From positions 20,341-84,340 of the forward strand of contig URHJ01000001.1 in assembly GCA_900547465.1 (NCBI GenBank): a stretch of 64,000 nt of DNA. The letters are read 5' to 3'. The notes under the pieces were generated by a model that saw only the letters and a program-made list of their open reading frames with translations, searched no databases and was not told the origin of the DNA. This document shows, piece by piece, positions 1 through 51,327 of this stretch (its first letter is position 1; every line of letters starts with the position of its first letter). The position numbers and the translations under genes are program-made. This DNA comes from an uncultured Mycoplasmatota bacterium (GTDB lineage: Bacteria; Bacillota_I; Bacilli_A; RF39; UBA660).

Positions 1-1361
1 AATTCTTTCATAGCTGCTGTAACAGGTCTAATATTAATTAATGTCTTTGGAGTAACTTCTTCCATCTCTTGAGTAGTCATTCTCTCACGAATAACACGTT
101 CCATACGAGATACACCAATTCTAAATTGATTTTGTAAAAGTTCACCAACTTGACGAATACGTCTATTACCTAGGTGATCAATTTCATCAAAGTTACCAAC
201 ACCATGTAATAAGTTCAAATAATATGAAACAGAAGCAAAAACATCAGAAATAGTAAGACGTTTTTCATCAATAGTTTGGTCATTACCAATAACTATTAAT
301 TTTTTCTTCTTATCACTTGGATCTATAACTTTAATTTCTTGAACTTTATTATAATTATCTAACTCTTCATTAATTGAAACTTCTTTAACACCATAGTTAG
401 CTAAAACATCTTTTAAATCTTCAAGTAAAGCTTTAGTAAATACAGTACCCTTAGCACATTTAACTTCACCATCAACTACAATATCTTCAGCCAAAGTTTG
501 ACCTAATAAACGATCCATAATATTTAACTTACGATTAAACTTATAACGTCCAACACGAGCTAAATCATATCTAAATTCATCAAAGAATCTAGTAATAATT
601 TGGTTCTTAGAAGAATCTAGAGTTGCAGGTTCCCCTGGTCTTAACTTTTCATAAATCTCAATTAAAGCCTCATCAGTATTCTTTGTAGAATCTTTAGCTA
701 TAGTATTTTTTAAATATTCATCTTCTCCAAACATTTTGAAAATTTCTTCATCAGAAGATAAACCAAACGCACGAAGTAATGTAGTCAATGTAACCTTACG
801 AGTACGATCGATTCTTACATATAATACATCTCTAGCATCTGTTTCGAACTCTAACCAAGTACCACGTGTAGGTATAATTTGAGAAGTAATTAATTCACGT
901 CCATTTTTATCTATTTCATGATTAAAATAAACACTAGGAGAACGAACTAATTGAGAAACAATAACACGTTCAGCACCATTAATAACAAATGTTCCACTAT
1001 CTGTCATAATAGGCATATCACCCATAAATATTTCTTGTTCTTTAACTTCACCAGTTTCTTGATTGAATAGACGAACTTCTACTTTTAAAGGAGCAGAATA
1101 AGTAGTTTCTCTATCCTTACTTTCTTTTATAGAATATCTAGGTTCATCAAAATAATAATCACCAAACTCTAATTTTAATGTACCAGAAAAATTTTCCACT
1201 GGAAATAGATCTTCAAAAACCTCTTTAATTCCAGTAGTTTGAAACCAATCATATGATTTCTTTTGAATTTCAAGCAAATCTTTTAATTCATACGTATTTC
1301 TTATTTTTGAGAAATTTCTTCTTTCTCTATGGTCACCACATTTAACAATCTTATATGCCAC
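1..1361 (-). CDS. rpoB: DNA-directed RNA polymerase beta subunit, N-terminal part; gene continues past the window start
   Basis: Reverse-strand translation from the GTG at 1361 gives (M)AYKIVKCGDHRERRNFSKI...YDWF...GDMPIMTDSGTFVINGAERVIVSQLVRSP, a typical RpoB N-terminus. It lies after the rplL-methyltransferase pair, as in Bacillus. Confidence 0.9.
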   Translation of the reverse strand, partial: MAYKIVKCGDHRERRNFSKIRNTYELKDLLEIQKKSYDWFQTTGIKEVFEDLFPVENFSGTLKLEFGDYYFDEPRYSIKESKDRETTYSAPLKVEVRLFNQETGEVKEQEIFMGDMPIMTDSGTFVINGAERVIVSQLVRSPSVYFNHEIDKNGRELITSQIIPTRGTWLEFETDARDVLYVRIDRTRKVTLTTLLRAFGLSSDEEIFKMFGEDEYLKNTIAKDSTKNTDEALIEIYEKLRPGEPATLDSSKNQIITRFFDEFRYDLARVGRYKFNRKLNIMDRLLGQTLAEDIVVDGEVKCAKGTVFTKALLEDLKDVLANYGVKEVSINEELDNYNKVQEIKVIDPSDKKKKLIVIGNDQTIDEKRLTISDVFASVSYYLNLLHGVGNFDEIDHLGNRRIRQVGELLQNQFRIGVSRMERVIRERMTTQEMEEVTPKTLINIRPVTAAMKE

Positions 1362-1461
1362 TAAATTCACCCCAAACAATTAATTTTTTAAAGAACAAAA
1401 TCGCATTAAAAATAACACGTTGCCAATTTATATTATTAGCACAAAATTGAAAAGAAGTCAA

Positions 1462-2046
1462 TTAAAAACTACACTTTAATACGAAAAAGCCTTTTTTCTT
1501 TTCTAAGATTTCAACATCATAAATATTTTTAAGATCAGAAATCAATGATTTAGCACCCTGTTCTTTTCTAATAACTAAGAAAAGCTTACCTCCAGGTTCC
1601 AAATGTTCTTTTGCATTCATAACGATTTCATAGACAATCTTTTTACCAGCACGTATAGGTGGATTAGTAATAATAGTATTGTATTTAGAAGTAACATTAG
1701 AATAACAATTACTTTCAAATACATTAATATTATCACAACCGTTTTCTCCTATATTACGACGAGCAAGATGCATCGCCCTAAGATTAACATCCACCATATC
1801 AACAGAAACATGAAGTATTTTATTAAGAATTATTCCAAATACTCCATAACCACAACCCATATCAAGGACCTTTGCTCCAACCTCATCAAGCGGGATGGAT
1901 TCAAGAAGAAGTCTACTGCCAAAGTCCAAACCATCTTTTGAAAAAACACCATTATCAGTTAAAAAAACAAACTTCCTGCCCAATACAAAACATTCAGTTC
2001 TTCTAATTTCACTTGGTAAATTTTCATTTGTAAAATATTGTCCCAT
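1462..2046 (-). CDS. Class I SAM-dependent methyltransferase (small RsmC/YbxB-type rRNA methyltransferase)
   Basis: Has the GCGYG SAM-binding motif and an NPP(I/F) motif. It sits between rplL and rpoB, where B. subtilis has ybxB. Confidence 0.75.
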   Translation of the reverse strand: MGQYFTNENLPSEIRRTECFVLGRKFVFLTDNGVFSKDGLDFGSRLLLESIPLDEVGAKVLDMGCGYGVFGIILNKILHVSVDMVDVNLRAMHLARRNIGENGCDNINVFESNCYSNVTSKYNTIITNPPIRAGKKIVYEIVMNAKEHLEPGGKLFLVIRKEQGAKSLISDLKNIYDVEILEKKKGFFVLKCSF

Positions 2047-2067
2047 TTTTATCTCTCCAAATACAAA

Positions 2068-2105
2068 AAGAAAGAGATAACTTAAAATTAAATATAAGTT
2101 ATCTC
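2068..2105 (-). promoter_or_regulatory. Leader hairpin followed by a U-tract (attenuator-like) in the 5' UTR of the methyltransferase-rpoB unit
   Basis: 11-bp inverted repeat GAGATAACTTA (2074-2084) / TAAGTTATCTC (2095-2105) with a 10-nt loop. On the minus-strand transcript it is followed by CTTTCTTTTT, about 15 nt before the RBS (GGAGAGATAAAAATG). Confidence 0.35.
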
Positions 2106-2117
2106 CTTTCTGGACAT

Positions 2118-2146
2118 ATAATACACCATAGTATTAAAAAAGTCAA
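2118..2146 (-). promoter_or_regulatory. Putative sigma-A promoter for the methyltransferase-rpoB unit
   Basis: On the minus strand: -35 TTGACT (rc of 2141-2146), a 17-nt spacer, -10 TATTAT (rc of 2118-2123). Confidence 0.4.
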
Positions 2147-2148
2147 TA

Positions 2149-2177
2149 AAAAAACGGAAGTTTAATCACTCTTCCGC
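2149..2177 (-). terminator. Rho-independent terminator upstream of the methyltransferase promoter
   Basis: Minus strand reads CGGAAGAGTGATTAAACTTCCG followed by T7. Confidence 0.5.
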
Positions 2178-2686
2178 AAAACATCAAACATCCATTGCTA
2201 TAAATTAACTTAATCGTTAAATATCATTAATTCAAAAACAATCAACATTCAACTTTTTCTCAGAAAAATATGTGGTTAGCTAAGTCACATACTCTCTCGC
2301 GTTTATTTACATTATCTAAAATAATGAACGAGTATCATATCTCTCGTAAGTCATTCATTCGGAATTTAATTTCTTGTGATCTACATCTTTATAAATCACA
2401 GCAAATGCATTTGACTAGAAATAGATTAATATTTTCCAAATAGCCACTTACTCTAACATGGACTATAACGAAACCCAAAATGAATGTCTAAAAACATACC
2501 AACAATTCGGTATATTATATCATAAATGATAGCTACATACGAAATAAACCTATAATCGTTTATTGATACTTCTATCATTCACAATATTATTATAACATAT
2601 ATTTGTATTTTGTCAATAGTTTTTTTAATTTTTGTTATCACTTACTGTTTTTAATTTAATACCACGAAAAAATGACATATTTATAA

Positions 2687-2711
2687 ACAAAAAAAGGAGC
2701 ATACACTCCTT
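2687..2711 (-). terminator. Rho-independent terminator ending the type VII secretion module
   Basis: Minus strand reads AAGGAG-tgtatg-CTCCTT followed by T7, directly after the stop of the 2757..3062 gene. Confidence 0.6.
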
Positions 2712-2756
2712 AAAATTTAAATTATTTTCCAGACAATACTTACACTAAATATATAA

Positions 2757-3062
2757 CTAATTAAACATATCTGACAAATCACTTAAATCAATATCTTTTT
2801 CCTCTATTTTAACAGAATCATCGTTATTGATACTTTGTGAAGCTACAGGCTCAACATTACCAACATAACCACTAGATAAATCAGGTTCATCATCTAAAAT
2901 TTCAATAGTTGGCTTTTTATATTCCAAAATATTAACATCATTAGCATTAAGTGTATTAAATGCCTCAACCAACTCAGGAGGAGTATTTTCATCAACAATC
3001 AATCTCCCATTTGCATCTAAATAACGAGCCATATATTGTTTTTGAATCTCATCAAGTTCCAT
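2757..3062 (-). CDS. Small acidic hypothetical protein, last gene of the type VII secretion module
   Basis: 101 aa, strongly acidic, no TM segment. Follows the WXG100 gene with a 17-bp gap on the same strand. Confidence 0.5.
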   Translation of the reverse strand: MELDEIQKQYMARYLDANGRLIVDENTPPELVEAFNTLNANDVNILEYKKPTIEILDDEPDLSSGYVGNVEPVASQSINNDDSVKIEEKDIDLSDLSDMFN

Positions 3063-3079
3063 AACAAATCCCTCTCTTA

Positions 3080-3385
3080 CTAGTGTCTTTTAGATTTTTT
3101 CTTAGAAACTGCTTTTGAAAATGCAAGTTGATTATCCATATTTACTGCATAATTATAAGCAGCCTTATAATCAGCAATATTATTATTATGATTCCTTATT
3201 GCCTTATCAAACCAAGCTTTAGCATCTTCACCATTCCAATATGCTGATGTACCATCACCCATTACAAAAGATTTTAAAGCTCCATTCAATGCTACAATAT
3301 CACTATGTAAATTTCTTAAACGTGTATTTACATTTTTTAATTCAGCTTCCATTTTATTTATTTTTTTAATTCCTACTGTCTCCAT
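3080..3385 (-). CDS. esxA: WXG100-family (EsxA-like) secreted protein
   Basis: 101 aa, predicted helix-turn-helix. A central W-x-G (SAYWNGEDAKAW) sits near residue 51. Adjacent to EssC and YukD-like genes. Confidence 0.7.
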   Translation of the reverse strand: METVGIKKINKMEAELKNVNTRLRNLHSDIVALNGALKSFVMGDGTSAYWNGEDAKAWFDKAIRNHNNNIADYKAAYNYAVNMDNQLAFSKAVSKKKSKRH

Positions 3386-3397
3386 AATATCCCCTTC

Positions 3398-3841
3398 CTA
3401 GTTACCACTAAAGTTTACAGAACTAGAGTCACTTTTTGCATTGGCATTGTAAAATGCAACAAATTCAGGTTGAGTTTGAAGATACTTAAACATAACTTGT
3501 AAAGCTTCTTCATTCTCATCAACATTAAATGCTTCTTCCAATTCTTTTTTTCTGTTTGAAGTATATTTACCTTGGTTTATACAATTTTCAGATAATTTTT
3601 CCAAATTAGAAATCCATCTTTTCCCAGAAACACATTTTGATATCTCCTTAAAATCTCCACCAAGTCTTTGAAATCTCTTAGTAACATTATCATAATTATC
3701 AGAAATAGTTCTTTTTAGCTTATTAGCCATATCGTTATTAACCATATCTGAATCAACACTAACATATTGATTAGTTAAATTTGGGTCAAGTTTTAAAGCT
3801 TCTATATCTTGAACACCAGGCGCAGTTATTATACTTGCCAT
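3398..3841 (-). CDS. Hypothetical soluble protein in the type VII secretion module (possible substrate or chaperone)
   Basis: 147 aa, no TM, no recognisable motif. Gene context only. Confidence 0.45.
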   Translation of the reverse strand: MASIITAPGVQDIEALKLDPNLTNQYVSVDSDMVNNDMANKLKRTISDNYDNVTKRFQRLGGDFKEISKCVSGKRWISNLEKLSENCINQGKYTSNRKKELEEAFNVDENEEALQVMFKYLQTQPEFVAFYNANAKSDSSSVNFSGN

Positions 3842-4112
3842 ATCATCATTTCTCCCATCACTATTATAATCATCTTAAGTATAGCACACTATTCTATTTT
3901 GTCAATACTTATTCAGACCATTGTCTATAGCCATAGTACAATTGGTGTAAACTTTATTTTATGTAAAATTAACCAAATTTATATCAAAAAATAAAATTAC
4001 AGATTTAATAATTATAAGTTGCCATATTACATACGATAAGCATCAACTTAATATCCAAAAAGTTTTATATTACCACTAATAAAGTAATAACATTACTATA
4101 AAAAAGCCTTCA

Positions 4113-4139
4113 TAGTTCACTTTTTCATTTAGTGAACTA
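4113..4139 (-). terminator. Possible intrinsic terminator after the YukD-like gene
   Basis: Inverted repeat TAGTTCACT (4113-4121) / AGTGAACTA (4131-4139) with a 9-nt loop. On the minus transcript it is followed by ..AAGGCTTTTTT. Confidence 0.3.
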
Positions 4140-4197
4140 CAAAGGTATTATATCTGTTTCAGATTTTTTATACTTATTTTTAACTGGTATATAAAAA

Positions 4198-4497
4198 TTA
4201 CAATAACATCAATTTCATGCCATTAGTTATACCAGAAAATTTAACTAAATTATTAACATTAATTAAATATCCATCATATCTATATAAGTTTTCACTACCG
4301 CTTGTACTATAATCATCACCAACAAGATCTTTTACAGTCTTAATAATAATCTTTATTGCATCACTAACTTTAATACCTATTGGAATATTTAAATCATATT
4401 CTTCATCTAATCTAACAACATATATTGAAACTAACAATTTATTCATACACATCACCTTCCTACGATAAATCAAAAAGGTATTTTTTACAAAACACAA
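4198..4497 (-). CDS. esaB: YukD/EsaB-like ubiquitin-fold protein of type VII secretion
   Basis: About 80-99 aa. The true start is probably an internal M (MNKLL..). A beta-grasp-like pattern (IYVVRLDEEYDLNIPIGIKVSDAI...YRYDGYLIN...GMKLML) lies immediately downstream of essC. Confidence 0.6.
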   Translation of the reverse strand: MCFVKNTFLIYRRKVMCMNKLLVSIYVVRLDEEYDLNIPIGIKVSDAIKIIIKTVKDLVGDDYSTSGSENLYRYDGYLINVNNLVKFSGITNGMKLMLL

Positions 4498-4512
4498 TTA
4501 ATATTGAGATTT

Positions 4513-7500
4513 CTAAGATATAGTTGGTGTTTTCAACAATTCTGCTTCAGAATCCTTTATAACAACTGCATTATCAGCTGCCACATCTCCAGAGTTTCTA
4601 AAATATGATGTTTCAAAAAATTCTTGAGAATCAAAATTTTGTCCAATCCATATACCATTTTGATTATCAATTATATTAGATAAACTACCATCAAGTAAGT
4701 TAGGAATATCTCTAAATGAATCATAAATAATATATTTAAACGAATTATTTTTAGTTTCTAAAATCAAATCATCAATTAGTTTAACTTCGTTATTATTACT
4801 CTTTTGTTCATTTAAATACCTAGATAAATTTGAATATCCAATAATCACTATAGTAAACAATTTTTCATTTGCATTCTGATTAAATTTCTGAACATTATTT
4901 AATAAAATTGGTACTATTTTTGTAAAGCTGGAATCATAATATTTTATATTTTCAGTGTGTGATATAGAAATTTCAGAAGCATTTAAAACAATAACATTAT
5001 TATTTTGACATTTAGCAAGAATGTCTATAAAATGATTAAAAAATTTACTAACTTGTTTCTCTTCACTACCGGACATCAAATTAACTATATTAGAAAAATT
5101 ATAATATCCAATCTGTGCAGTAGTTGTATTAATTCCAATTGGTACATTATCTAATGTAGTAATATCTTTTTCAATATATTTAATGCTCAATCTTCTAGGA
5201 ACAGTCGGAATTTCAGGAGCTTTTACTTTCATCACTTCATTCAACTTACCAATAACAAAATCAAGATTTTTCTTTTCATCACTTTCCGAAAATATTAAAG
5301 CCGTTTGGAATTCCATACATTGTTCATTAACCAAAACTAAACCTCGTCCTGGATTCTTTGATGGAATCTTTTTTGTTGAAAAGATATAACTATATTCTGA
5401 AGAATCATTCATATTCAATGCTATATTTTGTGGGAAATTATTACTAACAGATACAGTTAATGCACCTGTTTCAACAGATGATACAATAAAGTTTATTCCA
5501 TATTTGCTACAACTTCTTGTAGTTGATTCAAATAACTCATCATAACAATCAGAAAATTCCTCTCTAAACACTTCCATACCATAAATAAATACTAAAATAT
5601 TAGGAAAATGTCTAGTACCATTCTTCATATCATAACTAAAATCTCCACCATTTTTAGAATAGAATTCTTTTCTTCTATCAATTTCACTTGATACTAACCA
5701 AAATAAATAATTTACTTTTCTTTTATCATTAATTCCAATAACTTCTCCCACCTGAGGTGCACCAGAAAATTTTCTAAGTTTTTCCGCACCCAAGTCGATA
5801 ACATAAACATTTACTTCATTTACATTATAATTAATTATTGTTGAATAAAGCATAGTTGACATCAACGTACACTTTCCCATACCAGAAGAACCTACAATAA
5901 AAGTATTTCCCACATCAGATAAAGACATAGTAACAAAACCCTGCTTTTGATTTTCTGGATCATCATACTCACCAATAATTGCCTCTATTACAGATTTACT
6001 TGGTGTAAATTTATATTTCTGAACAATATCACTATAATAAATAAGATTAGGAACATTATCTAACCACAATTGATTATACTTATAATTATTTTCGTTTGCT
6101 ATTTTAACAATATAGTTCAAAATATTATTTAATTCTTCACCATATTTTACCTTAGTATTATCAACATCATTTTTTTGAACTGCAGATTTATAAACACTAC
6201 CCATATTATTTATAAAAGATATAGAATTATCAAGTTTAGACATAGCCTTTGATGTAGGAACATATTGTACACCTGAATAACCAGATTGTCCTAACACAAA
6301 GTACTGATCATAACCTACTAATAAATAAAATCTACCAGATTCCTTAATTGATGCAGCATCAGGTCTCATAATCATTTCATTACTATCTTCCGCAGTCTGA
6401 ACTTTACAACACACTTTAAATTTTGAGTTAGACCAAATTTGATCATTAACAACTCCACTAGGTTTTTGTGTTGCCAGAATTAAATGTATACCTAAAGAAC
6501 GACCTATACGAGCCGCACTAACAAGTTCGTCCATAAAATCAGGTTGTTGCTCCTTTAATTCAGCAAACTCATCACAAATAATAAATAAATGAGACATTGG
6601 ATCTTTTAAAGTTCCTTCTCTAACTAACTGTTGATATTTATATATATCAATACTACCAGTATTTAATTCTTCTTTTGCTTCGTTAAACTTTCTTTGTCTA
6701 CGTTGTAATTCACTTTTTATTGAAACCAGAGTTCTATTCATTTCGGATTTATCTAAGTTAGTAATTGTTCCCACTAAATGAGGTAACTTTATACCAGTTT
6801 TACGATTTTCAAATGCTCCAGCAAGTCCACCACCTTTATAATCAATTAAAACAAATTGAACTTCATCAGGATTATAATTAACAGCAAGAGACAAAATATA
6901 TGTAATTATAAATTCAGACTTACCACTACCTGTCATTCCAGCTACTAAACCATGGGGACCATGAAATTTTTCATGTAAATCTAAATATAATGTATTACCA
7001 TTTGGATCTACACCAACCGGAGCAGCCAATGAATTAATAATATCAGAAGTATTCCAACGATTAACTATATTCAATTGATCCAAATTACCAACATTATACA
7101 TTTCCAAGAATCCAAGTTTATCAGGTAAAGTTCCACTTGAATTGGAACTGATCTTTATAGGAATATTTGATAATGTATAAATACAACGATCATAATCAAT
7201 AGTTGAATCTAAAAGCTGAGGAATAAATTTTAACGTTCCGTCTTCTTCCATTTCTGATTCAAAATATGAAGCTTCATTATTTGTGTAAGAAATAAATTTT
7301 TTACATCCCATAGGAATTTCTATCATTTTATCACTAAACATAATTAAACTAAAATTAGCATTATGATTACCCAACATAACCTTTTCGATGATGGACAAAT
7401 TTTTATACTTATCTATAGCATCAGAAACAATCAAAAAATAAGATGTCATAACATTATTACTGATTTTTTCTTTATTAGAATCGTATATTTTACATAATTC

Positions 7501-9060
7501 ACTTGATAAATTTTCAGCCTCTCTAGAATTAGAAGCAAAGAATCTCAAACTTCTATCATTACTCCAACAATGATTCAAATTTTTAATTTTATTTAACCCA
7601 GAAAATTCATCTGTTAAAATAACAAGCTTCAAATCTGAATAGTCGTGTAATGTAATAAGTTGAAGCAAGATTGATCCCAAAAACATATCATAATCACCAT
7701 TATTGTTTATAAATGCGATTGAATTATTTTTTAAGTTAATCGTAAAGGGAGCATCATCAATATATTTATATTTATCAATTAAGGCATCTATTTTATCTAA
7801 TAATTTATCATTATCTATTATCAACTCAGGTCTTTCATATTTAAAATCAACATTAGATTTTATTTTACCAACCCCAAGTTTAACATTTAAAAAAAAGTTT
7901 GAACTAGAATTTCTTGAAAACAAATATGCAGTCTTTTTTAAGATAGCATCTTGACATTCATTTAATGATAAATTATTAAATTCTAACACCGTTCTTTGCT
8001 CTGTAACATACTCAATCAATTTCTTCTCTTTTCTTTTTAAATAACGCTTATATGTTACTACTCTAACCTTTTCGGTTATAAATGATCTTATTTTGTTTAC
8101 AAAAGATTCAACCACAGGCCAGATAATACCAGTAAATAACATCACAACACACATCACAAGTGAAGTCACTAAAGATTCTTTATCAGACCTTCCTGATTTA
8201 TAACCTTGTATTGAATAATAAGTTGATACCACAGAGGTAATACTCATCAATACCGTAGGAACCATTTGAAAAATAAGCCCTTCTGTTTCTTTTTTTTCTT
8301 TAGTACCTGGTGCTACAAAATTAAAACTATAAGTTTTTTCTTTTTTTCTAAATACAGTTGATTTAGAAAAATAATCCTTTTTTTCATAGAAATCTTTTAC
8401 ATTTTCATTTGAACTAATATTATTTATAGCATATTGACACTTATTTTCTGAAACAACTTTAGAATTATAGCAATTAATAGTAGTTTTACCAGGAAAAAAT
8501 ATTAACTTATTTGCTAGAATCACTATCCTAACTCCCATAACAAAAATATTATCAAAACTATATAAAAAACAATTGTTATTTCTTTTTTTATTAACATAAA
8601 TTGGAACATCAGTATTTAAGTTGTTGAGTTGCCATACATTTGAATTATAAGTAAGTTCCAATTGTTGCTGTGAAATATTTGGACTAGTCAAAATTAAATC
8701 ACATTTATTATCACTTCCTAATATTAACTTAGTTTCTTCCTGAACAGTATAAAAACAATAGTTAGGATCATCACCTGGAACTACGTACAACAATATATTT
8801 TCCTTATTTAAATAATTTAAATTATAAAACATATATTCATCAACAAAAGTTGACTGAACCGCATCAGAGCCAACAAAAACCGATACCTCTTCATTAGAAT
8901 TAATAATCCACTTTCCATCTTTTTCCTGAATATTTGTTAAATTTCTAACATGACCTTCATCATCAATATCTGTTAATACATAATTACCAGAAACTTCTTT
9001 AGGAAGCCTAAATGTATAAATTTTATCGCTATGTAATATATATATTAACATATCAGTCAC
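4513..9060 (-). CDS. essC: Type VII secretion FtsK/SpoIIIE-family ATPase EssC/YukB
   Basis: 1515 aa. N-terminal FHA-like region, a TM segment near residues 290-330, then repeated P-loop ATPase domains (Walker A motifs GMTGSGKSE and GSSGMGKCT). Flanked by YukD-like and WXG100 genes. Confidence 0.85.
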   Translation of the reverse strand: MTDMLIYILHSDKIYTFRLPKEVSGNYVLTDIDDEGHVRNLTNIQEKDGKWIINSNEEVSVFVGSDAVQSTFVDEYMFYNLNYLNKENILLYVVPGDDPNYCFYTVQEETKLILGSDNKCDLILTSPNISQQQLELTYNSNVWQLNNLNTDVPIYVNKKRNNNCFLYSFDNIFVMGVRIVILANKLIFFPGKTTINCYNSKVVSENKCQYAINNISSNENVKDFYEKKDYFSKSTVFRKKEKTYSFNFVAPGTKEKKETEGLIFQMVPTVLMSITSVVSTYYSIQGYKSGRSDKESLVTSLVMCVVMLFTGIIWPVVESFVNKIRSFITEKVRVVTYKRYLKRKEKKLIEYVTEQRTVLEFNNLSLNECQDAILKKTAYLFSRNSSSNFFLNVKLGVGKIKSNVDFKYERPELIIDNDKLLDKIDALIDKYKYIDDAPFTINLKNNSIAFINNNGDYDMFLGSILLQLITLHDYSDLKLVILTDEFSGLNKIKNLNHCWSNDRSLRFFASNSREAENLSSELCKIYDSNKEKISNNVMTSYFLIVSDAIDKYKNLSIIEKVMLGNHNANFSLIMFSDKMIEIPMGCKKFISYTNNEASYFESEMEEDGTLKFIPQLLDSTIDYDRCIYTLSNIPIKISSNSSGTLPDKLGFLEMYNVGNLDQLNIVNRWNTSDIINSLAAPVGVDPNGNTLYLDLHEKFHGPHGLVAGMTGSGKSEFIITYILSLAVNYNPDEVQFVLIDYKGGGLAGAFENRKTGIKLPHLVGTITNLDKSEMNRTLVSIKSELQRRQRKFNEAKEELNTGSIDIYKYQQLVREGTLKDPMSHLFIICDEFAELKEQQPDFMDELVSAARIGRSLGIHLILATQKPSGVVNDQIWSNSKFKVCCKVQTAEDSNEMIMRPDAASIKESGRFYLLVGYDQYFVLGQSGYSGVQYVPTSKAMSKLDNSISFINNMGSVYKSAVQKNDVDNTKVKYGEELNNILNYIVKIANENNYKYNQLWLDNVPNLIYYSDIVQKYKFTPSKSVIEAIIGEYDDPENQKQGFVTMSLSDVGNTFIVGSSGMGKCTLMSTMLYSTIINYNVNEVNVYVIDLGAEKLRKFSGAPQVGEVIGINDKRKVNYLFWLVSSEIDRRKEFYSKNGGDFSYDMKNGTRHFPNILVFIYGMEVFREEFSDCYDELFESTTRSCSKYGINFIVSSVETGALTVSVSNNFPQNIALNMNDSSEYSYIFSTKKIPSKNPGRGLVLVNEQCMEFQTALIFSESDEKKNLDFVIGKLNEVMKVKAPEIPTVPRRLSIKYIEKDITTLDNVPIGINTTTAQIGYYNFSNIVNLMSGSEEKQVSKFFNHFIDILAKCQNNNVIVLNASEISISHTENIKYYDSSFTKIVPILLNNVQKFNQNANEKLFTIVIIGYSNLSRYLNEQKSNNNEVKLIDDLILETKNNSFKYIIYDSFRDIPNLLDGSLSNIIDNQNGIWIGQNFDSQEFFETSYFRNSGDVAADNAVVIKDSEAELLKTPTIS

Positions 9061-9140
9061 CCACTTCTATATTCTAACGAAATTATAGCATATAAAACAA
9101 AAAAATAGAAGACAAACTAAAAATATTTAATTAAAATTCA

Positions 9141-9169
9141 AAAAAAAAGAAGTTAAATTACTTAACTTC
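9141..9169 (-). terminator. Intrinsic terminator overlapping the rplL stop codon
   Basis: GAAGTTAA (9149-9156) / TTAACTTC (9162-9169) with a 5-nt loop, followed on the minus transcript by U8 (rc of the A-run at 9141-9148). The stem is AT-rich and therefore weak. Confidence 0.4.
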
Positions 9170-9526
9170 TACTTCAGCTCCAGCTTCTTCAAGCTTAGAT
9201 TTAATTTCATTAGCTTCATCAACAGAAATGTTTTCTTTAACAACACCGTTATTATCAACGATATCTTTAGATTCTTTTAATCCTAATCCAGTAATTTCAC
9301 GAACTACTTTGATAACTGCAACTTTTGCAGAACCAGCAGAAGCTATTGATACAGTTACTGTAGAAGGAGCAGCATCTTGAGCATCTCCAGCAGCAGGAGC
9401 AGCAACAGCTACAGCTGATGGATCAACACCAAATTCTTCCTTCATTGCATCTACTAATTCTTTAATTTCTAATAAATTCATTTCTTTTAAACTACTAATA
9501 AAATCTTCTTTTGTTAATTTTGCCAT
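9158..9526 (-). CDS. rplL: 50S ribosomal protein L7/L12
   Basis: 122 aa. Starts [34 protein letters not shown], has the Ala-rich hinge, ends ..EAGAEVEVK. Confidence 0.95.
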
Positions 9527-9549
9527 TTTATTTTCCTCCTATTTTATAA

Positions 9550-10044
9550 TTAATTTTCTTCTTTTTGTTGACTATATAAGTCTAAGCAGATAGATAAATC
9601 TCTTGGGATTCCCATCATACCACCAGCAAGCATTGTAAGTAATCCTTCTCTTGAAGGAATAGTAGCATATTCTGAAAGTTTTGCTTGATCAGCAATCTCT
9701 CCATCAACAATCCCTACTTTTAATACTAGTGCTGGATGTTCCTTAGCAAAGTCAGTTAAAATCTTAATAGCTGCTACTTGATCATTACTATATGCAAAAG
9801 CACTAGGACCAACTAAACTATCATTAAGATCAATCTTTAAATCATTAAAAGCTCTAGCCATCAATGTATTTTTATATACTTTATAATCAGAACCAGATTC
9901 TCTTAACTTAATACGTAATTCTTTAGCTTCACCATCAGTAATACCACGATAATCAAATAACACGATTGAATTAGCTTCTTCAACATGATTTTTAATTTCA
10001 TCTATTACCTTTTGCTTAGCTTCTAGAATCTTAACATTTGCCAT
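9550..10044 (-). CDS. rplJ: 50S ribosomal protein L10
   Basis: 164 aa. Conserved rplJ-rplL order. Confidence 0.9.
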   Translation of the reverse strand: MANVKILEAKQKVIDEIKNHVEEANSIVLFDYRGITDGEAKELRIKLRESGSDYKVYKNTLMARAFNDLKIDLNDSLVGPSAFAYSNDQVAAIKILTDFAKEHPALVLKVGIVDGEIADQAKLSEYATIPSREGLLTMLAGGMMGIPRDLSICLDLYSQQKEEN

Positions 10045-10201
10045 AATACACCTCCTATTATATTAACATTTAGGGATGCCATAAAAAAGAGCTCAAGAAT
10101 AGACATCAAGAACTCTAATACTTTGTAAGTCCTCGGTAGGATTTATAAACACCTACTGTCTATGGCACCAATAAATTGTTTTTAGTATACTATATATTTA
10201 A
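10045..10201 (-). promoter_or_regulatory. Probable rplJ (L10) leader / autoregulatory region
   Basis: 157-nt non-coding gap between rplA and rplJ, where Firmicutes carry the L10 leader. Structure not verified. Confidence 0.25.
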
Positions 10202-10897
10202 TTATTTGTCAAAACTATTTTCTACTTTAATACCAGGACCCATTGTTGAAGAAATAGAAATGTTTTTAACATATTCTCCCTTAACAGTAGCTGGTTTTAC
10301 TTTTAAAATAGCTGCTACAAATGCATCTAAGTTAGCAAGTAAATCTTCCTCTGAGAAAGATACTTTACCAATAATACCATGAATATTACCAAATGAATCT
10401 GTTCTATATTCAACACGTCCAGCTTTAACTTCGTTAACAGCTTTTTCAACATCCATAGTAACAGTACCTGTTTTAGGGTTTGGCATTAATCCTCTAGGAC
10501 CTAAAACACGACCAATTTTACCAAGTAAAGGCATCATATCAGGAGTAGCAATCATAGTATCAAAATCGAACCAATTTTCTTTTTCGATTTTTTCGATCAT
10601 GTCAACATCTCCAACATAATCAGCACCAGCATTCTTAGCCTTTTCTGCATTTTCTCCCTTTGCAATTACTAATACACGAATATTCTTACCAGTTCCCTTA
10701 GGTAAAACTATTGCACCACGTAATTGTTGATCAGCCTTTTTAGTATCTAAGTTTAATCTCATTGCAACTTCTACAGAACCATCAAATTTACTAATAGAAG
10801 TTTCTTTAACTAACTTGACTGCTTCTTCTTTAGAATATACTTTACCTTTTTCTATCTTAGAAAAAGCTTCTTCGTATTTCTTACTTCTCTTTTTCAT
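10202..10897 (-). CDS. rplA: 50S ribosomal protein L1
   Basis: 231 aa, typical L1 sequence (..[19 protein letters not shown]..). Confidence 0.95.
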
Positions 10898-10973
10898 TAT
10901 TTTTCCTCCTTATGTGGTTTATTTCGGAATTCATGTAAGCGGACATTCCTTCCACAAGGTTACTTATTACCTA

Positions 10974-11528
10974 TTATTCTGCACTTTCTTCAGTTGTTTG
11001 TGCATCTGCTGCTTCTTTTGCAGCTTCCTTAGCTTCTTCTTTTGCTAATTCAATTTCATGTTCATGAGCTTCAGCTACTTCTTCTTCAAGTTCTTTATCA
11101 TTTACTCCTTCAACAGCTATACCCATATTTCTTGCTGTACCTTCAACAATTTTCATTGCTGCTTCTACATCATATGCATTTAAATCAGGTAATTTGATTT
11201 CTGCTATTTCACGAGCTTGTTCTTTTGTTAATGTAGCAACAATTTCATGTGCTCCTTTAACTGAACCTTTATTTATTTTAGCATACTTCTTTAATAAGAA
11301 ACTTGTAGGTGGAGTTTTAATAATAAAATCAAAACTTCTATCATCATATATTGAAATTTCTACTGGTAAGATATCTCCCATCTTATCTCTAGTAGCATCA
11401 TTATATTTTGTACAAAATTCTTGTAAATTAATTCCTGCTGGTCCTAAAACAGTTCCAACTGGTGGAGCTGGTGTAGCTTTTCCTGCAGGTATTTGTAATT
11501 TAATCTTCTTTACTGCTTCCTTTGCCAC
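10974..11528 (-). CDS. rplK: 50S ribosomal protein L11 with an acidic C-terminal extension of about 45 aa
   Basis: First ~140 aa are canonical L11 ([22 protein letters not shown]...[12 protein letters not shown]). The tail is E/A/K-rich (..[37 protein letters not shown]). Confidence 0.9.
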
Positions 11529-11733
11529 GAAAAACGCCTCCTTTTATTTTGTTTTCGCGAGTGGTCCAAATAGCTATTACCGCTTTAATTGCTTTATTGC
11601 CTCCCACTAAAAACTATATTAAATTAAATATAGCTACTAAAGAATATCATAAATTTCCTTATTTTTCAAGAAATTTTTAACAAAAATAGCAAAAAGCCAA
11701 AATAAAAACGGCTAAATTAACCGTTTTATCATT
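11529..11733 (-). promoter_or_regulatory. nusG-rplK intergenic region: probable nusG terminator and L11-L1 operon leader
   Basis: On the minus transcript a stem AACGG..CCGTT is followed by a T-run just after the nusG stop. The L11 leader is called by position only. Confidence 0.25.
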
Positions 11734-12267
11734 TTATGCTCTTTCAATTTGATTTAATTCAACTTCTACAGAAGTTTCTTGACCAAACAAATCAACTGAT
11801 AAATTAACTTTTTGATTTGGTATATCAACTTCTTCTACTTTACCATACATACCATTAAATGGACCAGAAATAATTTTAACTTTAACTCCAACTTCTAATT
11901 CATTATCAACATCAATACGAGACATTCCCATATTATTCAAAATCTTATCTACTTCATAAGGTTGTAATGGAGTAGGTTTTGCCCCTTTACCACTTGATCC
12001 AATAAATCCTGTAACACCTGGTGTATTACGAACAACATACCAAGCTTCATCAGTCATAACCATTTCAACAAGAATATATCCAGGAAACATTTTCTTTACT
12101 TTTTCCTTAGTTACTCCATCTTTTATTTCTACCTCTTTTTGTTCTGGAACAATAACTCTATAAATATAATCTTCCATATTCATAGATTCAGCTCTCATCT
12201 CTAGTTTTTCTTTTACTTTGTTTTCATGTCCTGAATAAGTATTAACTACATACCATTGTTTTTCCAT
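11734..12267 (-). CDS. nusG: Transcription antitermination factor NusG
   Basis: 177 aa with NGN and KOW regions. secE-nusG-rplK synteny. Confidence 0.95.
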   Translation of the reverse strand: MEKQWYVVNTYSGHENKVKEKLEMRAESMNMEDYIYRVIVPEQKEVEIKDGVTKEKVKKMFPGYILVEMVMTDEAWYVVRNTPGVTGFIGSSGKGAKPTPLQPYEVDKILNNMGMSRIDVDNELEVGVKVKIISGPFNGMYGKVEEVDIPNQKVNLSVDLFGQETSVEVELNQIERA

Positions 12268-12278
12268 AATTACCCTCC

Positions 12279-12593
12279 TTATTTAAATAATGCTTGAAAA
12301 AAAGCAAATAAAGCATCTATTCCATAGAAAAATAAGGAACAGAAAACTATAAATATAATAGTTGCAATAGAATACTTTACCATATCAGTTTTTGATGTCC
12401 AATGAACTTTAGTAAATTCAGTTTTAACACCATGACAAAAAATTCTAAATTTAACCCACAAATTATTTTTTTCTTCTTTATTTGTATTTTTCTTAGTAGT
12501 CTTTTTCTTTTTTTGCACTACTTCTTCTTCATGCTTATCTTCATCAATTTTTACAATAGATTTTCTTTCTTTTGCCTTTACAATTTCAGCCAT
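12279..12593 (-). CDS. secE: Preprotein translocase subunit SecE (Lys-rich N-terminal extension)
   Basis: 104 aa with a single C-terminal TM helix. Position upstream of nusG. Confidence 0.8.
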   Translation of the reverse strand: MAEIVKAKERKSIVKIDEDKHEEEVVQKKKKTTKKNTNKEEKNNLWVKFRIFCHGVKTEFTKVHWTSKTDMVKYSIATIIFIVFCSLFFYGIDALFAFFQALFK

Positions 12594-12688
12594 TTTTCTT
12601 CACCTTGCTTCTTAATTTTTCCAAATAAAAAACACTCTTTCGTGTTCACAATTAAAATAACATAAACACAATAGAATGTCAATAAAAA

Positions 12689-13345
12689 TTAACCAATAAA
12701 TAAAGCAATTGATAAAACTACTCCTAAAACTATCATCGCAATTGGTAAAATCAAAAAACTAACAAAAGCAGCTTGTCTCTTATCATCTAAATCTCTATAA
12801 AGATTTCTAGTATCTTTATCCGCAAAAGCACTACCTATACTTGTAGCCTTCTTTTTTTGAATTCCCATAGAAGTAGAAGAACCTTCACCTACTTCTTTTT
12901 GTAATGCTTCTACTTCTCTTCTCGTTTTTTCAGCAACAAAGTCACAATAATAAACAGAGGCCCCCCTTTCTACAATCCCTCTAAAATAAGGAACATCATC
13001 TTGAGGCAAAAATTCAGCAAACATATCAAAATTTTCTTTTAAAAATTTAGGCTTTAAATAATCAAATGTACCGCTATAAATACCAATTTGAATAAAGGCA
13101 ATATTATATATATCTTCTCTAATTAACTGGCTTTCTTGATCAAGTGGCATCTTAATAACTGTTTTATAACGAATAGGACTTTCTTTTTCAGTATCAAGAA
13201 TTTCGATATCATTAAGGTTGAAACTTTTTATACAATAATCATGTTCATGAATATACTTCATAGCTGTTGACATATTATAATATAATTTCTGCATATCTTC
13301 CGTACTATGTTGATATTGATAGTACTCTTTCAAATCCATTTTCAT
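12689..13345 (-). CDS. Hypothetical tail-anchored membrane protein (cytoplasmic N-domain, single C-terminal TM)
   Basis: 218 aa, with the only hydrophobic helix at the extreme C-terminus (AAFVSFLILPIAMIVLGVVLSIALFIG). It occupies the slot between sigH and secE where Bacillus has rpmG. Confidence 0.5.
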   Translation of the reverse strand: MKMDLKEYYQYQHSTEDMQKLYYNMSTAMKYIHEHDYCIKSFNLNDIEILDTEKESPIRYKTVIKMPLDQESQLIREDIYNIAFIQIGIYSGTFDYLKPKFLKENFDMFAEFLPQDDVPYFRGIVERGASVYYCDFVAEKTRREVEALQKEVGEGSSTSMGIQKKKATSIGSAFADKDTRNLYRDLDDKRQAAFVSFLILPIAMIVLGVVLSIALFIG

Positions 13346-13399
13346 ACCCTATTCACCTATGATAATTGTAACATAAAACTATAAAAAAAACAGATAAAT

Positions 13400-14008
13400 T
13401 TATATTTTTTCAAACTCTAATTTATATCTGTCTTTACATATTTGTATATAACGATCAACTGAACTAACTGATAAATCAAGTAATTTAGCTATTTCTTTAT
13501 ACTTAAAACCATTATAACGTAATTCAAATATTAAACTCTGAACAAGAGGTAATTTATGCTTAAACTTAATTAACTTAGTAAATATGTAATCAGAACTAAC
13601 ATAAAAATCTGGACTTCCACTACAATCTTCATCTTCAGGATCAAAAGTAATATCATCATCAATAATAATATTATCAAAAGAATAAGCATTATTTAAAATT
13701 TCATTTTTAGTAGAAAGAAATTGCCTACAATATCCCCTTATTTGTCTATTTATACAAATACTACTAAATGTATAAAACAATGCACTTTGATTATCTTTAT
13801 ATGATTTAATTGCGTTAGAAAGACCAACATAACCTTCTTGAACTAAATCATCTTTATCAATACCTCTAAATTTAAAATAATTATAATACTTATCAGCTAT
13901 TGCATAAATGATAGGTTTATATTTTCTAAATATAACTTTCTCTGCCTCATCATCATTTTCTGCAACCAAATACAATTGTTCATAATCGTTAATATCTCTA
14001 TAATCCAT
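13400..14008 (-). CDS. sigH: Sigma-70 family sigma factor, SigH-like
   Basis: 202 aa. Region 2 motif DLVQEGYVGLSNAIKSY and region 4 HTH (YKEIAKLLDLSVSSVDRYI). Synteny cysS-mrnC-rlmB-sigH as in Bacillus and Clostridium. Confidence 0.7.
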   Translation of the reverse strand: MDYRDINDYEQLYLVAENDDEAEKVIFRKYKPIIYAIADKYYNYFKFRGIDKDDLVQEGYVGLSNAIKSYKDNQSALFYTFSSICINRQIRGYCRQFLSTKNEILNNAYSFDNIIIDDDITFDPEDEDCSGSPDFYVSSDYIFTKLIKFKHKLPLVQSLIFELRYNGFKYKEIAKLLDLSVSSVDRYIQICKDRYKLEFEKI

Positions 14009-14015
14009 AATATAC

Positions 14016-14714
14016 CTACTTTCTATTACGGACTACCTCATATATCATGATACCAGAAGCTACACTAGCATTTAAACTATTAATCTTACCAAACATAGGT
14101 ATAGTAGCAACAAAATCACAGGACTCTCTAACTAGTCTAGAAATTCCCCTTCCCTCATTACCAATTACTAATGCTGTTTTTCCACTATAATCAATGCTAC
14201 GATAATCAACACTATCTTCCATTGCTGTTCCAACAACCCAGAAACCATTATCTTTTAACTTGCTAATAGCATTAACAAGGTTAGAAACAACAGCAATATG
14301 AACATTTGATAAAGCTCCTGCACTAGTTTTCATAACAGTAGAATTAACCATTACTTGTCTATCCTTTGGTATTATAATATAAGAAACACCAGCCGCTTCA
14401 CATGTTCTTATGATTGCTCCCAAATTATGAGGATCTTCTAAATGATCAAGAATCACAACAAAATCTGAATCAGATGAGCAAACATCATCTAATGAACTAT
14501 ATTGGTAGTCCTTAATGTCAAGTATTATACCTTGATGAGTACCATTACACAAATTATCCATTTCTCTTTTTTGCTTATAAAATATATCGAATTTGCAATT
14601 TTCTAGTAATGAATTTATCTTTTTATCATCAAATCCATCTTGCAAAATAACTTTTTTTACATTTTTAGGATTTTGTAAAACTTCTTTAGCAACATTTCTT
14701 CCATAAACTAACAT
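14016..14714 (-). CDS. rlmB: 23S rRNA (guanosine-2'-O)-methyltransferase RlmB (SpoU/TrmH family)
   Basis: 232 aa, SpoU methylase motifs (..LVIGNEGRGIS..), yacO position. Confidence 0.8.
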   Translation of the reverse strand: MLVYGRNVAKEVLQNPKNVKKVILQDGFDDKKINSLLENCKFDIFYKQKREMDNLCNGTHQGIILDIKDYQYSSLDDVCSSDSDFVVILDHLEDPHNLGAIIRTCEAAGVSYIIIPKDRQVMVNSTVMKTSAGALSNVHIAVVSNLVNAISKLKDNGFWVVGTAMEDSVDYRSIDYSGKTALVIGNEGRGISRLVRESCDFVATIPMFGKINSLNASVASGIMIYEVVRNRK

Positions 14715-15091
14715 AAACTACCTCCTAATATATATTCCATTATCTCATCGATACGCACTCTATTATTAGTAAGTTCTAAATATCCAATAACAGCTTCCAA
14801 ACCTGTCGCATGTTTATAAGTAACAATATCACAGTTTTTTGGATGAGATGTACTTTTATAATTTCTAGCTCTTTTAAAAACATCTACTTCCTCTTCAGAT
14901 AATAAATTTTCATCTAATAATTTTTTAATGAATCCAGCTTGATGTTTTGCACTAACATAATTGACAGATTTCTTCTGTAATTCATCTACATTATTTATTC
15001 CTAACGAAATTAAATATTTTCTAATATAATCTTCATAAATAGTATCACCTAAATAAGCAAGTACTAATACATTTACTTCTCTTACGTCCAT
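14708..15091 (-). CDS. mrnC: Mini-ribonuclease III
   Basis: 127 aa. LAYLGDTIYE and ATGLEAVIGYLEL motifs. yazC position after cysS. Confidence 0.8.
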   Translation of the reverse strand: MDVREVNVLVLAYLGDTIYEDYIRKYLISLGINNVDELQKKSVNYVSAKHQAGFIKKLLDENLLSEEEVDVFKRARNYKSTSHPKNCDIVTYKHATGLEAVIGYLELTNNRVRIDEIMEYILGGSLC

Positions 15092-15141
15092 ATTTCCTCC
15101 AATAACAAAGATAGTATATCACAAAAAAAGAACATAATGTT

Positions 15142-16536: not shown

Positions 16537-16583
16537 AATATCACCTGCACATATTATAACATAAGAGTAAAAACAATGAAATA

Positions 16584-18884: not shown

Positions 18885-18982
18885 ACTATCTCCTCCTAAA
18901 CATATTGTATGTTTAGTATATGTTTTTTGTAAAGATTTTATATCCCCAAAAAAGTGACAAGAATTTCAAAAAAAAAGACAAA

Positions 18983-19447
18983 CTATCTTTTCTTAGTAAG
19001 ACAATAGCCCCTACCATCAGATAGTTCATCAAAGAATTGACTTGTTAAAGAAGTTTTTATATTTTTTAAATAATCATGTGATACACTACATACTTCCAAT
19101 ATAACTTTGCTTGAAGTAACATCAACACCATGAGAAAGAGTAGAATTAAAGCAAATACTTTCATCTGTTTCTCTACCATCAATTTTAAAAGTTCCTTTGA
19201 GCGATTTATAACGTTCAGCACCCTCATCTAGATTATGAAGACGAATACCAGAACCTGTAGGAATATATAAATAAGAAATATCATAACCATCATTTTCAAT
19301 AGAAAAAGATCCATTAATTTTATACACAGGTCCAATCGCAATATCATCAGAAAGTAACGAATAATCCTCCTCCATAATTTTAGACTCTACATACAATAAT
19401 TTATCCATAATATCACTCCTCAAAATATAAAGGATATTATAATACAA
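18983..19447 (-). CDS. Hypothetical protein upstream of clpC
   Basis: 154-aa ORF with no recognisable motif. It has no HTH, so it is not CtsR. Confidence 0.4.
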   Translation of the reverse strand: MYYNILYILRSDIMDKLLYVESKIMEEDYSLLSDDIAIGPVYKINGSFSIENDGYDISYLYIPTGSGIRLHNLDEGAERYKSLKGTFKIDGRETDESICFNSTLSHGVDVTSSKVILEVCSVSHDYLKNIKTSLTSQFFDELSDGRGYCLTKKR

Positions 19448-19502
19448 AAAAATAAATCTGTAAACAAAAAAAAGACCACAATCAAATGTGATCTTTAAAA
19501 CA

Positions 19503-51170: not shown

Positions 51171-51327
51171 AACCTAACATTTTTTTATAAAAAAAGATGC
51201 ACATGAGAGTTGATTGTTAAAGCTGCTATCTTCCGATTCTGACTTGATTCCAATACACTCATTGCATCTATTACATTTTATTACATTTTTAATCATAATT
51301 CAATAAAAACATTCAAAACATTTTATA

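Follow-up and report, generated by a model that had tools for sequence, protein, structure and literature searches.

The locus and its transcription units

Is a type VII secretion locus of only five genes, lodged between rplL and rpoB, the remnant of a system, one part of a dispersed machine, or a cassette that works as it stands? The question is raised by a 64,000-nucleotide stretch of DNA from an uncultured Mycoplasmatota bacterium (GenBank assembly GCA_900547465.1, contig URHJ01000001.1, positions 20,341 to 84,340; hereafter the window), in which an earlier note, written from the letters alone, had recognized a pared-down ESX/Ess-type module. We conclude that the locus is probably an intact, independently transcribed type VII secretion system (T7SS) cassette of a low-GC human-gut Bacilli species, which is kept in that species as whole-cassette alleles.

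Every gene in positions 1-20000 of the window lies on the minus strand. Read along that strand, rplJ, which follows an L10 leader, and rplL (9158-9526) are succeeded by essC, a yukD-like gene (4198-4446; 82 amino acids (aa), or 84 aa if translation starts at 4452), a gap, the gene of a 147-aa protein that we call p147 (3398-3841), the gene of a 101-aa WXG-type protein (3080-3385), the gene of an acidic 101-aa protein (2757-3062), a terminator, 710 bp of non-coding DNA, a methyltransferase gene (1462-2046; PF05175, E 3e-45) and rpoB (start at about 1360). All the genes that the earlier note had placed between rplL and the methyltransferase-rpoB pair are present there on the minus strand; its order, with the WXG gene straight after the yukD-like gene, needed correction to p147, WXG-type, acidic. 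The locally conserved unit consists of these five genes only.

The island begins at the terminator of the rplJL operon, a hairpin at 9140-9169 (GAAGTTAA-gtaat-TTAACTTC followed by T9) that encloses the rplL stop codon, just as the earlier note had described it. It was read from the sequence, because the terminator scanner missed it for having too few G-C pairs, and it is kept in relatives, including those with an empty junction. The essC open reading frame (ORF) covers 4513-9060 (1515 codons) on the minus strand, and its likely start is the ATG at 9051 (4513-9051, 1512 aa), which has a GGGTGA ribosome-binding site upstream. The ATG-start protein is 100% identical to the public protein P0001, unlike the GTG-start form, for which an exact-sequence look-up returned no match. 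A candidate extended -10 element, TGCTATAAT at 9090-9082, would provide the essC promoter; a consensus scan passed over it for want of a -35 element, and the same arrangement of promoter and ribosome-binding site recurs in a second allele (allele B, below) with TGTGTTATAAT.

The earlier note had treated the five genes as a single block. They are divided into two operons, essC with the yukD-like gene (operon 1), and p147 with the WXG-type and acidic genes (operon 2), by a gap of 356 bp (3842-4197) that contains a terminator and a near-consensus promoter. The terminator-like hairpin on the minus strand at 4100-4146 (12 of 14 positions paired, followed by a T-run) probably ends the essC-yukD unit; it was again recognized by reading the sequence, the scanner having missed it because of its 11-nt loop. 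The promoter-like site of operon 2, found by scan on the same strand at 3878-3905, reads TTGACA-16-TATACT with an upstream TG (11 of 12 matches). The scan also places an intrinsic terminator behind the acidic gene (2711-2684, minus strand), which agrees with the claim that the block ends in a terminator of its own.

Whole-cassette alleles within one species

The window (allele A) was compared with the related locus L003 (allele B). The two are 98-100% identical in DNA through rplL and again from about 2181, and between these flanks identity is 53-83% across essC and indistinguishable from noise across the cargo genes. The fall, from 99% to about 64%, occurs exactly at the rplJL terminator (9140-9169), which is the left boundary of the variable island. 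Across the same-species contigs compared, cassette DNA is 55-65% identical or cannot be aligned. The right boundary lies at about 2181-2153, where identity to same-species alleles resumes (at 2181 or at 2153), so the strain-variable island extends further than the block end given in the earlier note. The proteins show the same pattern: RplL is 100%, the methyltransferase 97% and a 218-aa neighbour 99.5% identical, against 56% for EssC and 41% for the YukD-like protein. Within EssC, identity between alleles A and B is 53% in FHA1, 36% in FHA2, 48% in the transmembrane (TM) part, 53% in the DUF domain, 86% in D1, 56% in D2 and 41% in D3. The promoters and ribosome-binding sites are conserved between the alleles.

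A third form, allele C (L015, L106), has an EssC that is 49% identical and carries other cargo families, c12 and c13. Thus, at least three whole-cassette alleles exist in the species of the window. To sample the species further, 24 of the longest contigs with an identical RplL were read; all 10 distinct places listed from them carry a cassette, nine of them allele A and one allele C. One allele A locus (L105:10476-15014) has essC split into ORFs of 527 aa and 978 aa inside the DUF domain, which is due either to a natural knockout or to an error of assembly.

We propose that recombination in the identical flanks swaps motor, helper and cargo as a set. Such whole-cassette exchange implies diversifying selection on the specificity between motor and cargo, arising from competition between strains or from the host. 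No toxin/immunity pair is recognizable in allele A, and Pfam found neither a match nor a toxin domain in the acidic proteins, in a 224-aa WXG fusion of allele B or in c12 and c13 of allele C; because allele A has no recognizable pair, the selective force is a matter of conjecture.

Staphylococcus aureus (essC1-4), Listeria and group B Streptococcus likewise have within-species EssC forms, reported to differ in their C-terminal region, that co-vary with the substrate genes downstream, and in the present alleles, too, D3 (41%) is among the most divergent parts. Unlike in those species, as they have been described, the motor (49-56%), the YukD-like protein (41%) and all cargo are here replaced as one block. 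A further difference is the position of the breakpoints, which here fall within the rplL terminator at one end and the promoter of the methyltransferase gene at the other.

An insertion hotspot at the rplL-methyltransferase junction

The close relatives of EssC (35-62% identity) were all found in metagenome-assembled genomes of uncultured gut bacteria that carry the label Bacilli, Firmicutes or Tenericutes. In L001, L002, L003, L006/L007, L042 and L074, the module occupies the interval from rplL to the methyltransferase gene; in L005, L008-L013, L095 and L096 it has other positions. In L002 (EssC 61%) the contig has no methyltransferase gene downstream. Fragments of an IS3-type transposase (HTH_28, HTH_21, rve) directly follow that cassette at L002:16118-17420, in the place of the methyltransferase gene.

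We then surveyed the junction itself by a metagenome scan with the methyltransferase protein, which gave 80 loci. In 13 of them, the distance between rplL and the methyltransferase gene is 151-211 bp and is taken up entirely by the terminator, the promoter and a short spacer between them. A second class, of about 850 bp, has no ORF; many loci fall into a third, of 1.1-1.6 kb; and a fourth, of 7-8 kb, holds essC and yukD. Nineteen loci carry a WXG-type gene paired with a member of the p147-related family c1 without essC, mostly in gaps of 1.1-1.6 kb, the others being cut short or larger. The insertion point is the spacer of about 30 nt between the rplJL terminator and the methyltransferase-rpoBC promoter.

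Because the junction is empty in relatives, the cassette is an insertion relative to those empty sites, and the word "inserted" in the earlier note was well chosen. Its companion claim, that this junction is conserved and free of accessory genes, does not hold in this clade of gut Bacilli, in which the junction is an insertion hotspot that may be empty or occupied by RNA only, by a hairpin pair or by an essC cassette.

The motor is an EssC-type ATPase

Scored with TIGR03928, the NCBI equivalog model of EssC in Firmicutes, the 1512-aa protein reaches 884.2 bits (cutoff 778.4; residues 230-1512). The competing models reach 52 bits (FtsK) and about 15 bits (TraB/TrbE), so that the protein does not regroup with FtsK- or TraG-type ATPases. 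Pfam recognizes two FtsK_SpoIIIE domains and an FHA domain (E 2e-7, residues 113-163), and the best relative of known structure is YukB of Bacillus subtilis in the T7SSb core complex (PDB 9qks_G, E 1e-106). The layout comprises two degenerate FHA domains, two predicted TM segments (around residues 261 and 294), a DUF domain and the ATPase domains D1-D3, of which only D1 has a canonical Walker A motif. By hidden Markov model (HMM) score, the protein is therefore assigned as a bona fide EssC and a T7SSb-like motor, as the earlier note had proposed from its FHA-like, TM and FtsK-family domains.

A direct reading of the translation places G-S where FHA domains have G-R, and S-Q-Q-Q where they have S-x-x-H. 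Therefore, the phosphothreonine-binding residues have been lost, as in T7SSb, whose FHA domains lack them and bind the EssB pseudokinase (PMC11217815).

Could the locus be a relic in decay, or a DNA translocase of the FtsK/TraG type, without a secretory role, that a mobile element left behind? The split essC of L105 and the transposase fragments behind the L002 cassette would fit such an origin. Against it, FtsK, TraB and TrbE score at most 52 bits where the EssC model scores 884, and the essC ORF is full length within a 107-sequence cluster. Closer relatives retain 83-90% identity in D1, and the two most distant sequences in the comparison 69-72%; the alleles have kept their promoters and ribosome-binding sites, and the cassette in the window contains no relaxase, integrase or replication gene. 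A conjugative coupling protein or FtsK translocase would be expected to match TraG, TcpA or FtsK best and to lie among mobility genes, and neither is seen here. We consider this explanation very improbable.

The YukD-like protein and the products of operon 2

The Pfam YukD model (PF08817) matches the 82-aa protein over its full length, but its score of 18.3 bits (E 0.004) stays under the cutoff of 27. Three of ten relatives hit YukD weakly and others hit ubiquitin-like (UBL) families. An hhalign comparison with B. subtilis YukD, the sequence of which was verified against PDB 2bps and 9qks, aligned only the C-terminal motif G-I-x-N-G-x-x-L, and a search of PDB chains with the family profile found no YukD structure. 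The gene adjoins essC in all loci whose adjoining DNA was examined. The YukD call of the earlier note thus rests on motif, model and synteny and falls short of the family threshold.

The same holds in outline for the protein that had been called WXG100. Pfam finds no WXG100 domain (PF06013) in the 101-aa protein or in any of the six family members scanned. Residues 50-52 read WNG, and W50, G52 and A55 are invariant among the homologues (sets of 24 and 59). An AlphaFold2 model built on the homologue alignment (predicted local distance difference test score (pLDDT) 90) shows a helix at residues 2-42, a loop at 43-52 (GDGTSAYWNG) and a helix at 53-100. Compared with EsxA of Geobacillus thermodenitrificans, the model gives TM-scores of 0.71/0.78, and LapA3/LapA4 are in the top Foldseek hits; a Foldseek search against the PDB yielded nothing at E<=0.001. 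The family profile retrieved no WXG100 structure from PDB chains (an ESAT-6-like protein at E 0.19 at best), and hhalign against bona fide WXG100 proteins gave a probability of 3%, with the signature motif alone aligned. We therefore call the protein WXG-type and not a member of PF06013; the WXG100 label draws on the W-x-G motif, the hairpin model and synteny, and the protein is predicted to be a WXG100-like cargo or core subunit.

The earlier note had called for a structure prediction of the 147-aa protein, and AlphaFold2 returned a confident helical hairpin: the N-terminal 30 residues are disordered, helices span 36-70 and 74-123, and pLDDT exceeds 90 for residues 40-105. Foldseek of this model against the PDB gave nothing specific, and such non-specific results are expected of helical hairpins. 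By hhalign, p147 is related to the 124-aa c1 family (probability 91%, E 1e-6), whose gene lies 5' of the WXG-type gene in 19 of the 19 junction loci that have it. None of the 162 homologues in the p147/c1 family has a Pfam domain. The idea that p147 offers a phosphothreonine motif to the FHA domains was abandoned, since EssC's FHA domains are missing the binding residues.

The acidic 101-aa protein consists of a small domain at its N-terminus, a disordered, acidic tail and a C-terminus that is conserved (…LSDLSDMFN). Neither it nor its counterparts in other cassettes match Pfam or NCBIfam. These proteins are 90-130 aa long with about 30% Asp plus Glu, and have little sequence in common beyond a C-terminal motif, L-x-[DN]-[LMF]-F, with tails that read LSDLSDMFN, LEGLNNLFN, VEELNDFF, LNDLDNFF, LNNLNDLFS, MPLNDLF, SDVDNLF and VEELDSLF. 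A homologue or analogue is present in the junction essC cassettes that were examined in full (the window, L002, L003, L015, L042/L037 and L074, alleles A, B and C included) and also in L005 and L009, the cassettes of which sit elsewhere. None was identified in the junction cassette L006/L007, and the protein is absent from the orphan pairs of c1 and WXG-type genes. By analogy with EsxB, it is a candidate carrier of an EssC-docking signal, or an adaptor. The earlier note was right that two small proteins of 147 aa and 101 aa are encoded here; they are not idiosyncratic extras, p147 and the acidic proteins being conserved unannotated families that travel with the WXG-type gene and essC.

A search for the missing membrane components

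Pfam and NCBIfam detect no EssB (PF10140), EsaA, EssA, kinase or phosphatase among the five module proteins, and no family of the YukC/EssB, EssA or EsaA kind is encoded within 10 kb of EssC in the related loci examined. The earlier note had reported the module to be without EssB/YukC, EsaA/YueB and EssA, which is confirmed for the locus, and had considered that EssB and EsaA might lie just beyond it in relatives, which is not the case in the closer ones. No kinase or phosphatase is encoded in the window cassette or in L001-L008. A PP2C gene upstream in L096 (EssC 45%) is the only phosphatase gene among the loci with EssC relatives of 35-62% identity, and the outlier L097 (EssC 30%) has a Ser/Thr kinase gene beside EssC. 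In five more distant loci (EssC 35-45%), an ATPase of the HerA/DUF87 type, about 590-640 aa long, is encoded no more than 8 kb from EssC (L009:6901-8664, L096:16389-18308, L011/L012:16602-18512 and L013:1687-3465); this ATPase may have an accessory role in that sub-clade, and it was not found in the window.

The 64-kb window contains no bitopic ORF of at least 300 aa and no membrane protein of at least 800 aa, the size and topology of EssB and EsaA, and a Pfam scan of 10 of its unannotated or membrane ORFs found no T7SS family. The only membrane ORF in the module is a 61-aa ORF on the opposite strand, which is confined to allele A. By size and topology and by this partial Pfam scan, "pared-down" is thus an apt description of the locus and of the window.

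These findings bear on the possibility that the system is an ordinary T7SSb with EssB, EsaA and EssA encoded at an unlinked site, the cassette being its motor, helper and cargo part. EssC does score above the T7SSb equivalog cutoff, its FHA domains are degenerate like those that bind EssB in T7SSb (PMC11217815), the known job of YukD is to enable the recruitment of YukC (PMC12637312), and our view of the genome spans 64 kb. On the other hand, canonical T7SSb genes are contiguous, and the closer EssC loci, in at least six genomic contexts, have none of these genes within 10 kb. Such absence of linkage to further components across many contexts argues against a separate partner. An unlinked EssB would, moreover, have to tolerate EssC alleles that are 36-53% identical in their FHA domains. 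We regard an unlinked T7SSb as rather unlikely.

One neighbour of the cassette deserved attention as a potential EssB. The 218-aa protein mentioned above is encoded at 12689-13345 (minus strand), between a sigH-like gene and secE and 3.6 kb upstream of the cassette, and has a C-terminal TM segment. As a single sequence, it matches nothing in Pfam or the PDB. A profile of 16 family members matches almost only eukaryotic-type protein kinases in the PDB (E 0.011 and above), in register over the alpha-E helix, the catalytic loop and the DFG segment, with the catalytic Asp residues replaced. By this profile, the protein looks like a tail-anchored pseudokinase. It might fill the role of EssB, given its membrane anchor and the fact that EssB/YukC and TshM of T7SSh are membrane (pseudo)kinases (PMC11217815). 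However, the E-values are marginal and the profile does not match the EssB/YukC chains in the PDB. Furthermore, the gene is kept at the same position in all 24 related loci with enough upstream sequence, including relatives with an empty junction, and its product is shared at 99.5% identity by strains whose EssC is at 56%; therefore, it does not co-vary with EssC. Its position beside a sigma factor gene suggests another role, and we consider its service as EssB improbable.

Comparison with described systems and a working model

In addition to TsxA, TsxB and TsxC, every one of the subtypes T7SSa-j conserves one or more further components (Garrett, Higginson & Palmer 2024, PMC11217815). As judged from the sequences, the gene set of the locus matches none of them locally, while its motor is T7SSb-like. 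With T7SSb (S. aureus Ess, B. subtilis Yuk/Yue), it has in common an EssC-type motor with degenerate FHA domains, an adjoining YukD/EsaB-like gene and WXG-type hairpins. It differs in that EssB/YukC, EsaA/YueB and EssA/YueC are encoded neither in the window locus nor within 10 kb of it in the closer relatives, in a WXG-type protein outside PF06013, in the additional acidic protein with its C-terminal motif, and in its site inside the rplL-rpoB cluster. What characterizes T7SSc, d, e, h and j, a neighbouring Ser/Thr kinase and/or PPM phosphatase, or else an accessory protein of the FHA or Ig-repeat kind, is absent from the cassette. The simplest described subtypes, T7SSg and T7SSf, also consist of TsxA (WXG), TsxB (ubiquitin-like) and TsxC (ATPase) with few extras (PMC11217815), and TsfC of T7SSf likewise has FHA domains with poorly conserved phosphothreonine sites. 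Unlike the motor described here, TsgC of T7SSg has no FHA domain, and T7SSg includes the beta-propeller protein TsgL and has a Tad pilus next to it; the extras of T7SSf are a PPM phosphatase, TsfJ (a DUF6382-FHA protein) and TsfV (an AAA+ ATPase). The window cassette and its closest relatives encode none of them and are set apart from both subtypes by gene content.

Based on these comparisons, we suggest a working model. EssC would insert into the membrane via its two TM segments and oligomerize, D1 would power export, and the oligomer would act as both channel and motor. YukD binds the FHA, DUF and D1 parts of YukB and enables the recruitment of YukC (PMC12637312); by analogy, the YukD-like protein would bind and stabilize the FHA, DUF and D1 surface of EssC. 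Operon 2 would supply the cargo or a co-dependent core subunit, an exported heterodimer of the p147 and WXG-type hairpins. The tandem hairpin genes, one with W-x-G at the turn, resemble those of ESAT-6/CFP-10 (EsxA/EsxB). In T7SSa, EsxB has a short hydrophobic C-terminal tail (L..MGF in CFP-10), a signal bound by ATPase3 of EccC (PMC6954902). By analogy, the L-x-[DN]-[LMF]-F tail of the acidic protein would dock on the variable D3 of EssC. A difference is that the tail-like motif sits here on a third, acidic protein and not on a hairpin, with no detectable sequence homology to EsxB.

Taken further, the model would make EssC and the YukD-like protein a self-sufficient T7SS without an accessory membrane component, a minimal system of a subtype beyond T7SSa-j, in which the acidic tail serves as the allele-specific address on EssC D3. 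On that assumption, the machine became so small that the whole set of motor, helper and cargo could turn into one swappable allele at a fixed hotspot. We put this extension forward tentatively, as possible though on the doubtful side.

Several observations weigh against the proposal that the cassette is an intact secretion system. Secretion is predicted from the genes by homology. Every described T7SS needs or conserves at least one further component (PMC11217815), and the degenerate FHA domains together with the partner-recruiting role of YukD hint at an unseen partner. The YukD-like protein scores below its family threshold and the WXG-type protein lies outside PF06013; in profile comparisons both align by their signature motifs alone, and hairpin folds are non-specific. 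The docking role of the acidic tail is drawn by analogy, and allele A has no recognizable toxin/immunity pair.

If the intact-cassette interpretation is right, it bears on the question of which T7SS components are indispensable; the described subtypes all include further membrane or regulatory components. A five-gene system found in nature would be the simplest candidate for reconstitution. Motor and cargo would co-diversify as whole alleles in a common uncultured human-gut species, a more extreme case than the known EssC variants, and the allele pattern points to strain-level competition or host selection in a little-known lineage. Three unannotated families are added to the T7SS repertoire, namely the WXG-type hairpin outside PF06013, p147/c1 and the acidic protein.

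Non-coding elements and other features of the window

Between the cassette and the methyltransferase gene lies an allele-specific non-coding unit (2148-2616, minus strand), which starts right behind the cassette terminator with a sigma-70 promoter at 2616-2589 (12 of 12 matches, and a TG), continues for about 430 nt and closes with a terminator hairpin and T-run (hairpin at 2177-2155). It has no ORF longer than 41 aa, its minimum free energy z-score is -3.6, and several blocks are conserved with allele B amid unalignable DNA. The unit may be a cassette-associated small RNA or leader. The gap 2047-2756 was also considered as a known RNA, which was rejected as Rfam gave no match.

The 5' untranslated region of the methyltransferase-rpoBC transcript contains a hairpin with a T-run (2065-2110, minus strand), located downstream of the promoter (2146-2118) and before the ribosome-binding site. 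Other members of the clade keep this hairpin, with compensatory changes in its arms (GGAGAUAACU/AGUUAUCUCU versus GGAAGAAAAC/GUUUUCUUCU), and it looks like a transcription attenuator ahead of rpoB.

In many relatives, the junction carries a structured RNA (L052:6685-6845 and 24 other loci, alignment A9), and L106 has it as inverted copies at 10775-10935 and 12745-12905. Its invariant blocks are GAGAGAAAGAAAACUCU, UAAGU, a variable stem with the loop ACUGAUAAU, and AAACUCG, followed by a terminator; 12 of 17 predicted pairs show compensatory changes. The element matches the Rfam PGK RNA (RF03040) over its full length at 32-47 bits, below the cutoff of 50.8. As a candidate for the window it was discarded, being absent there. 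A sub-threshold Lacto-rpoB RNA motif (35.4 against 40 bits) directly follows rplL in L066 (8485-8538).

The L10 leader ahead of rplJ (10074-10183, minus strand) scores 43.7 bits, just under the Rfam cutoff of 44 bits. A T-box leader (39044-39248) and the small signal recognition particle RNA (51186-51278), both on the minus strand, score above their cutoffs; all three are ordinary housekeeping RNAs. Six small membrane-protein genes form a run at 32400-36330 (minus strand); three of them encode similar N-terminally anchored proteins of about 205 aa (34393-36330) without a significant Pfam match, and the product of 33546-34322 has a borderline match to signal peptidase S26 (22.5 against 22.9 bits). 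Finally, the end of the window lies near oriC, with dnaA located at 59890-61293 and followed by a strand switch.

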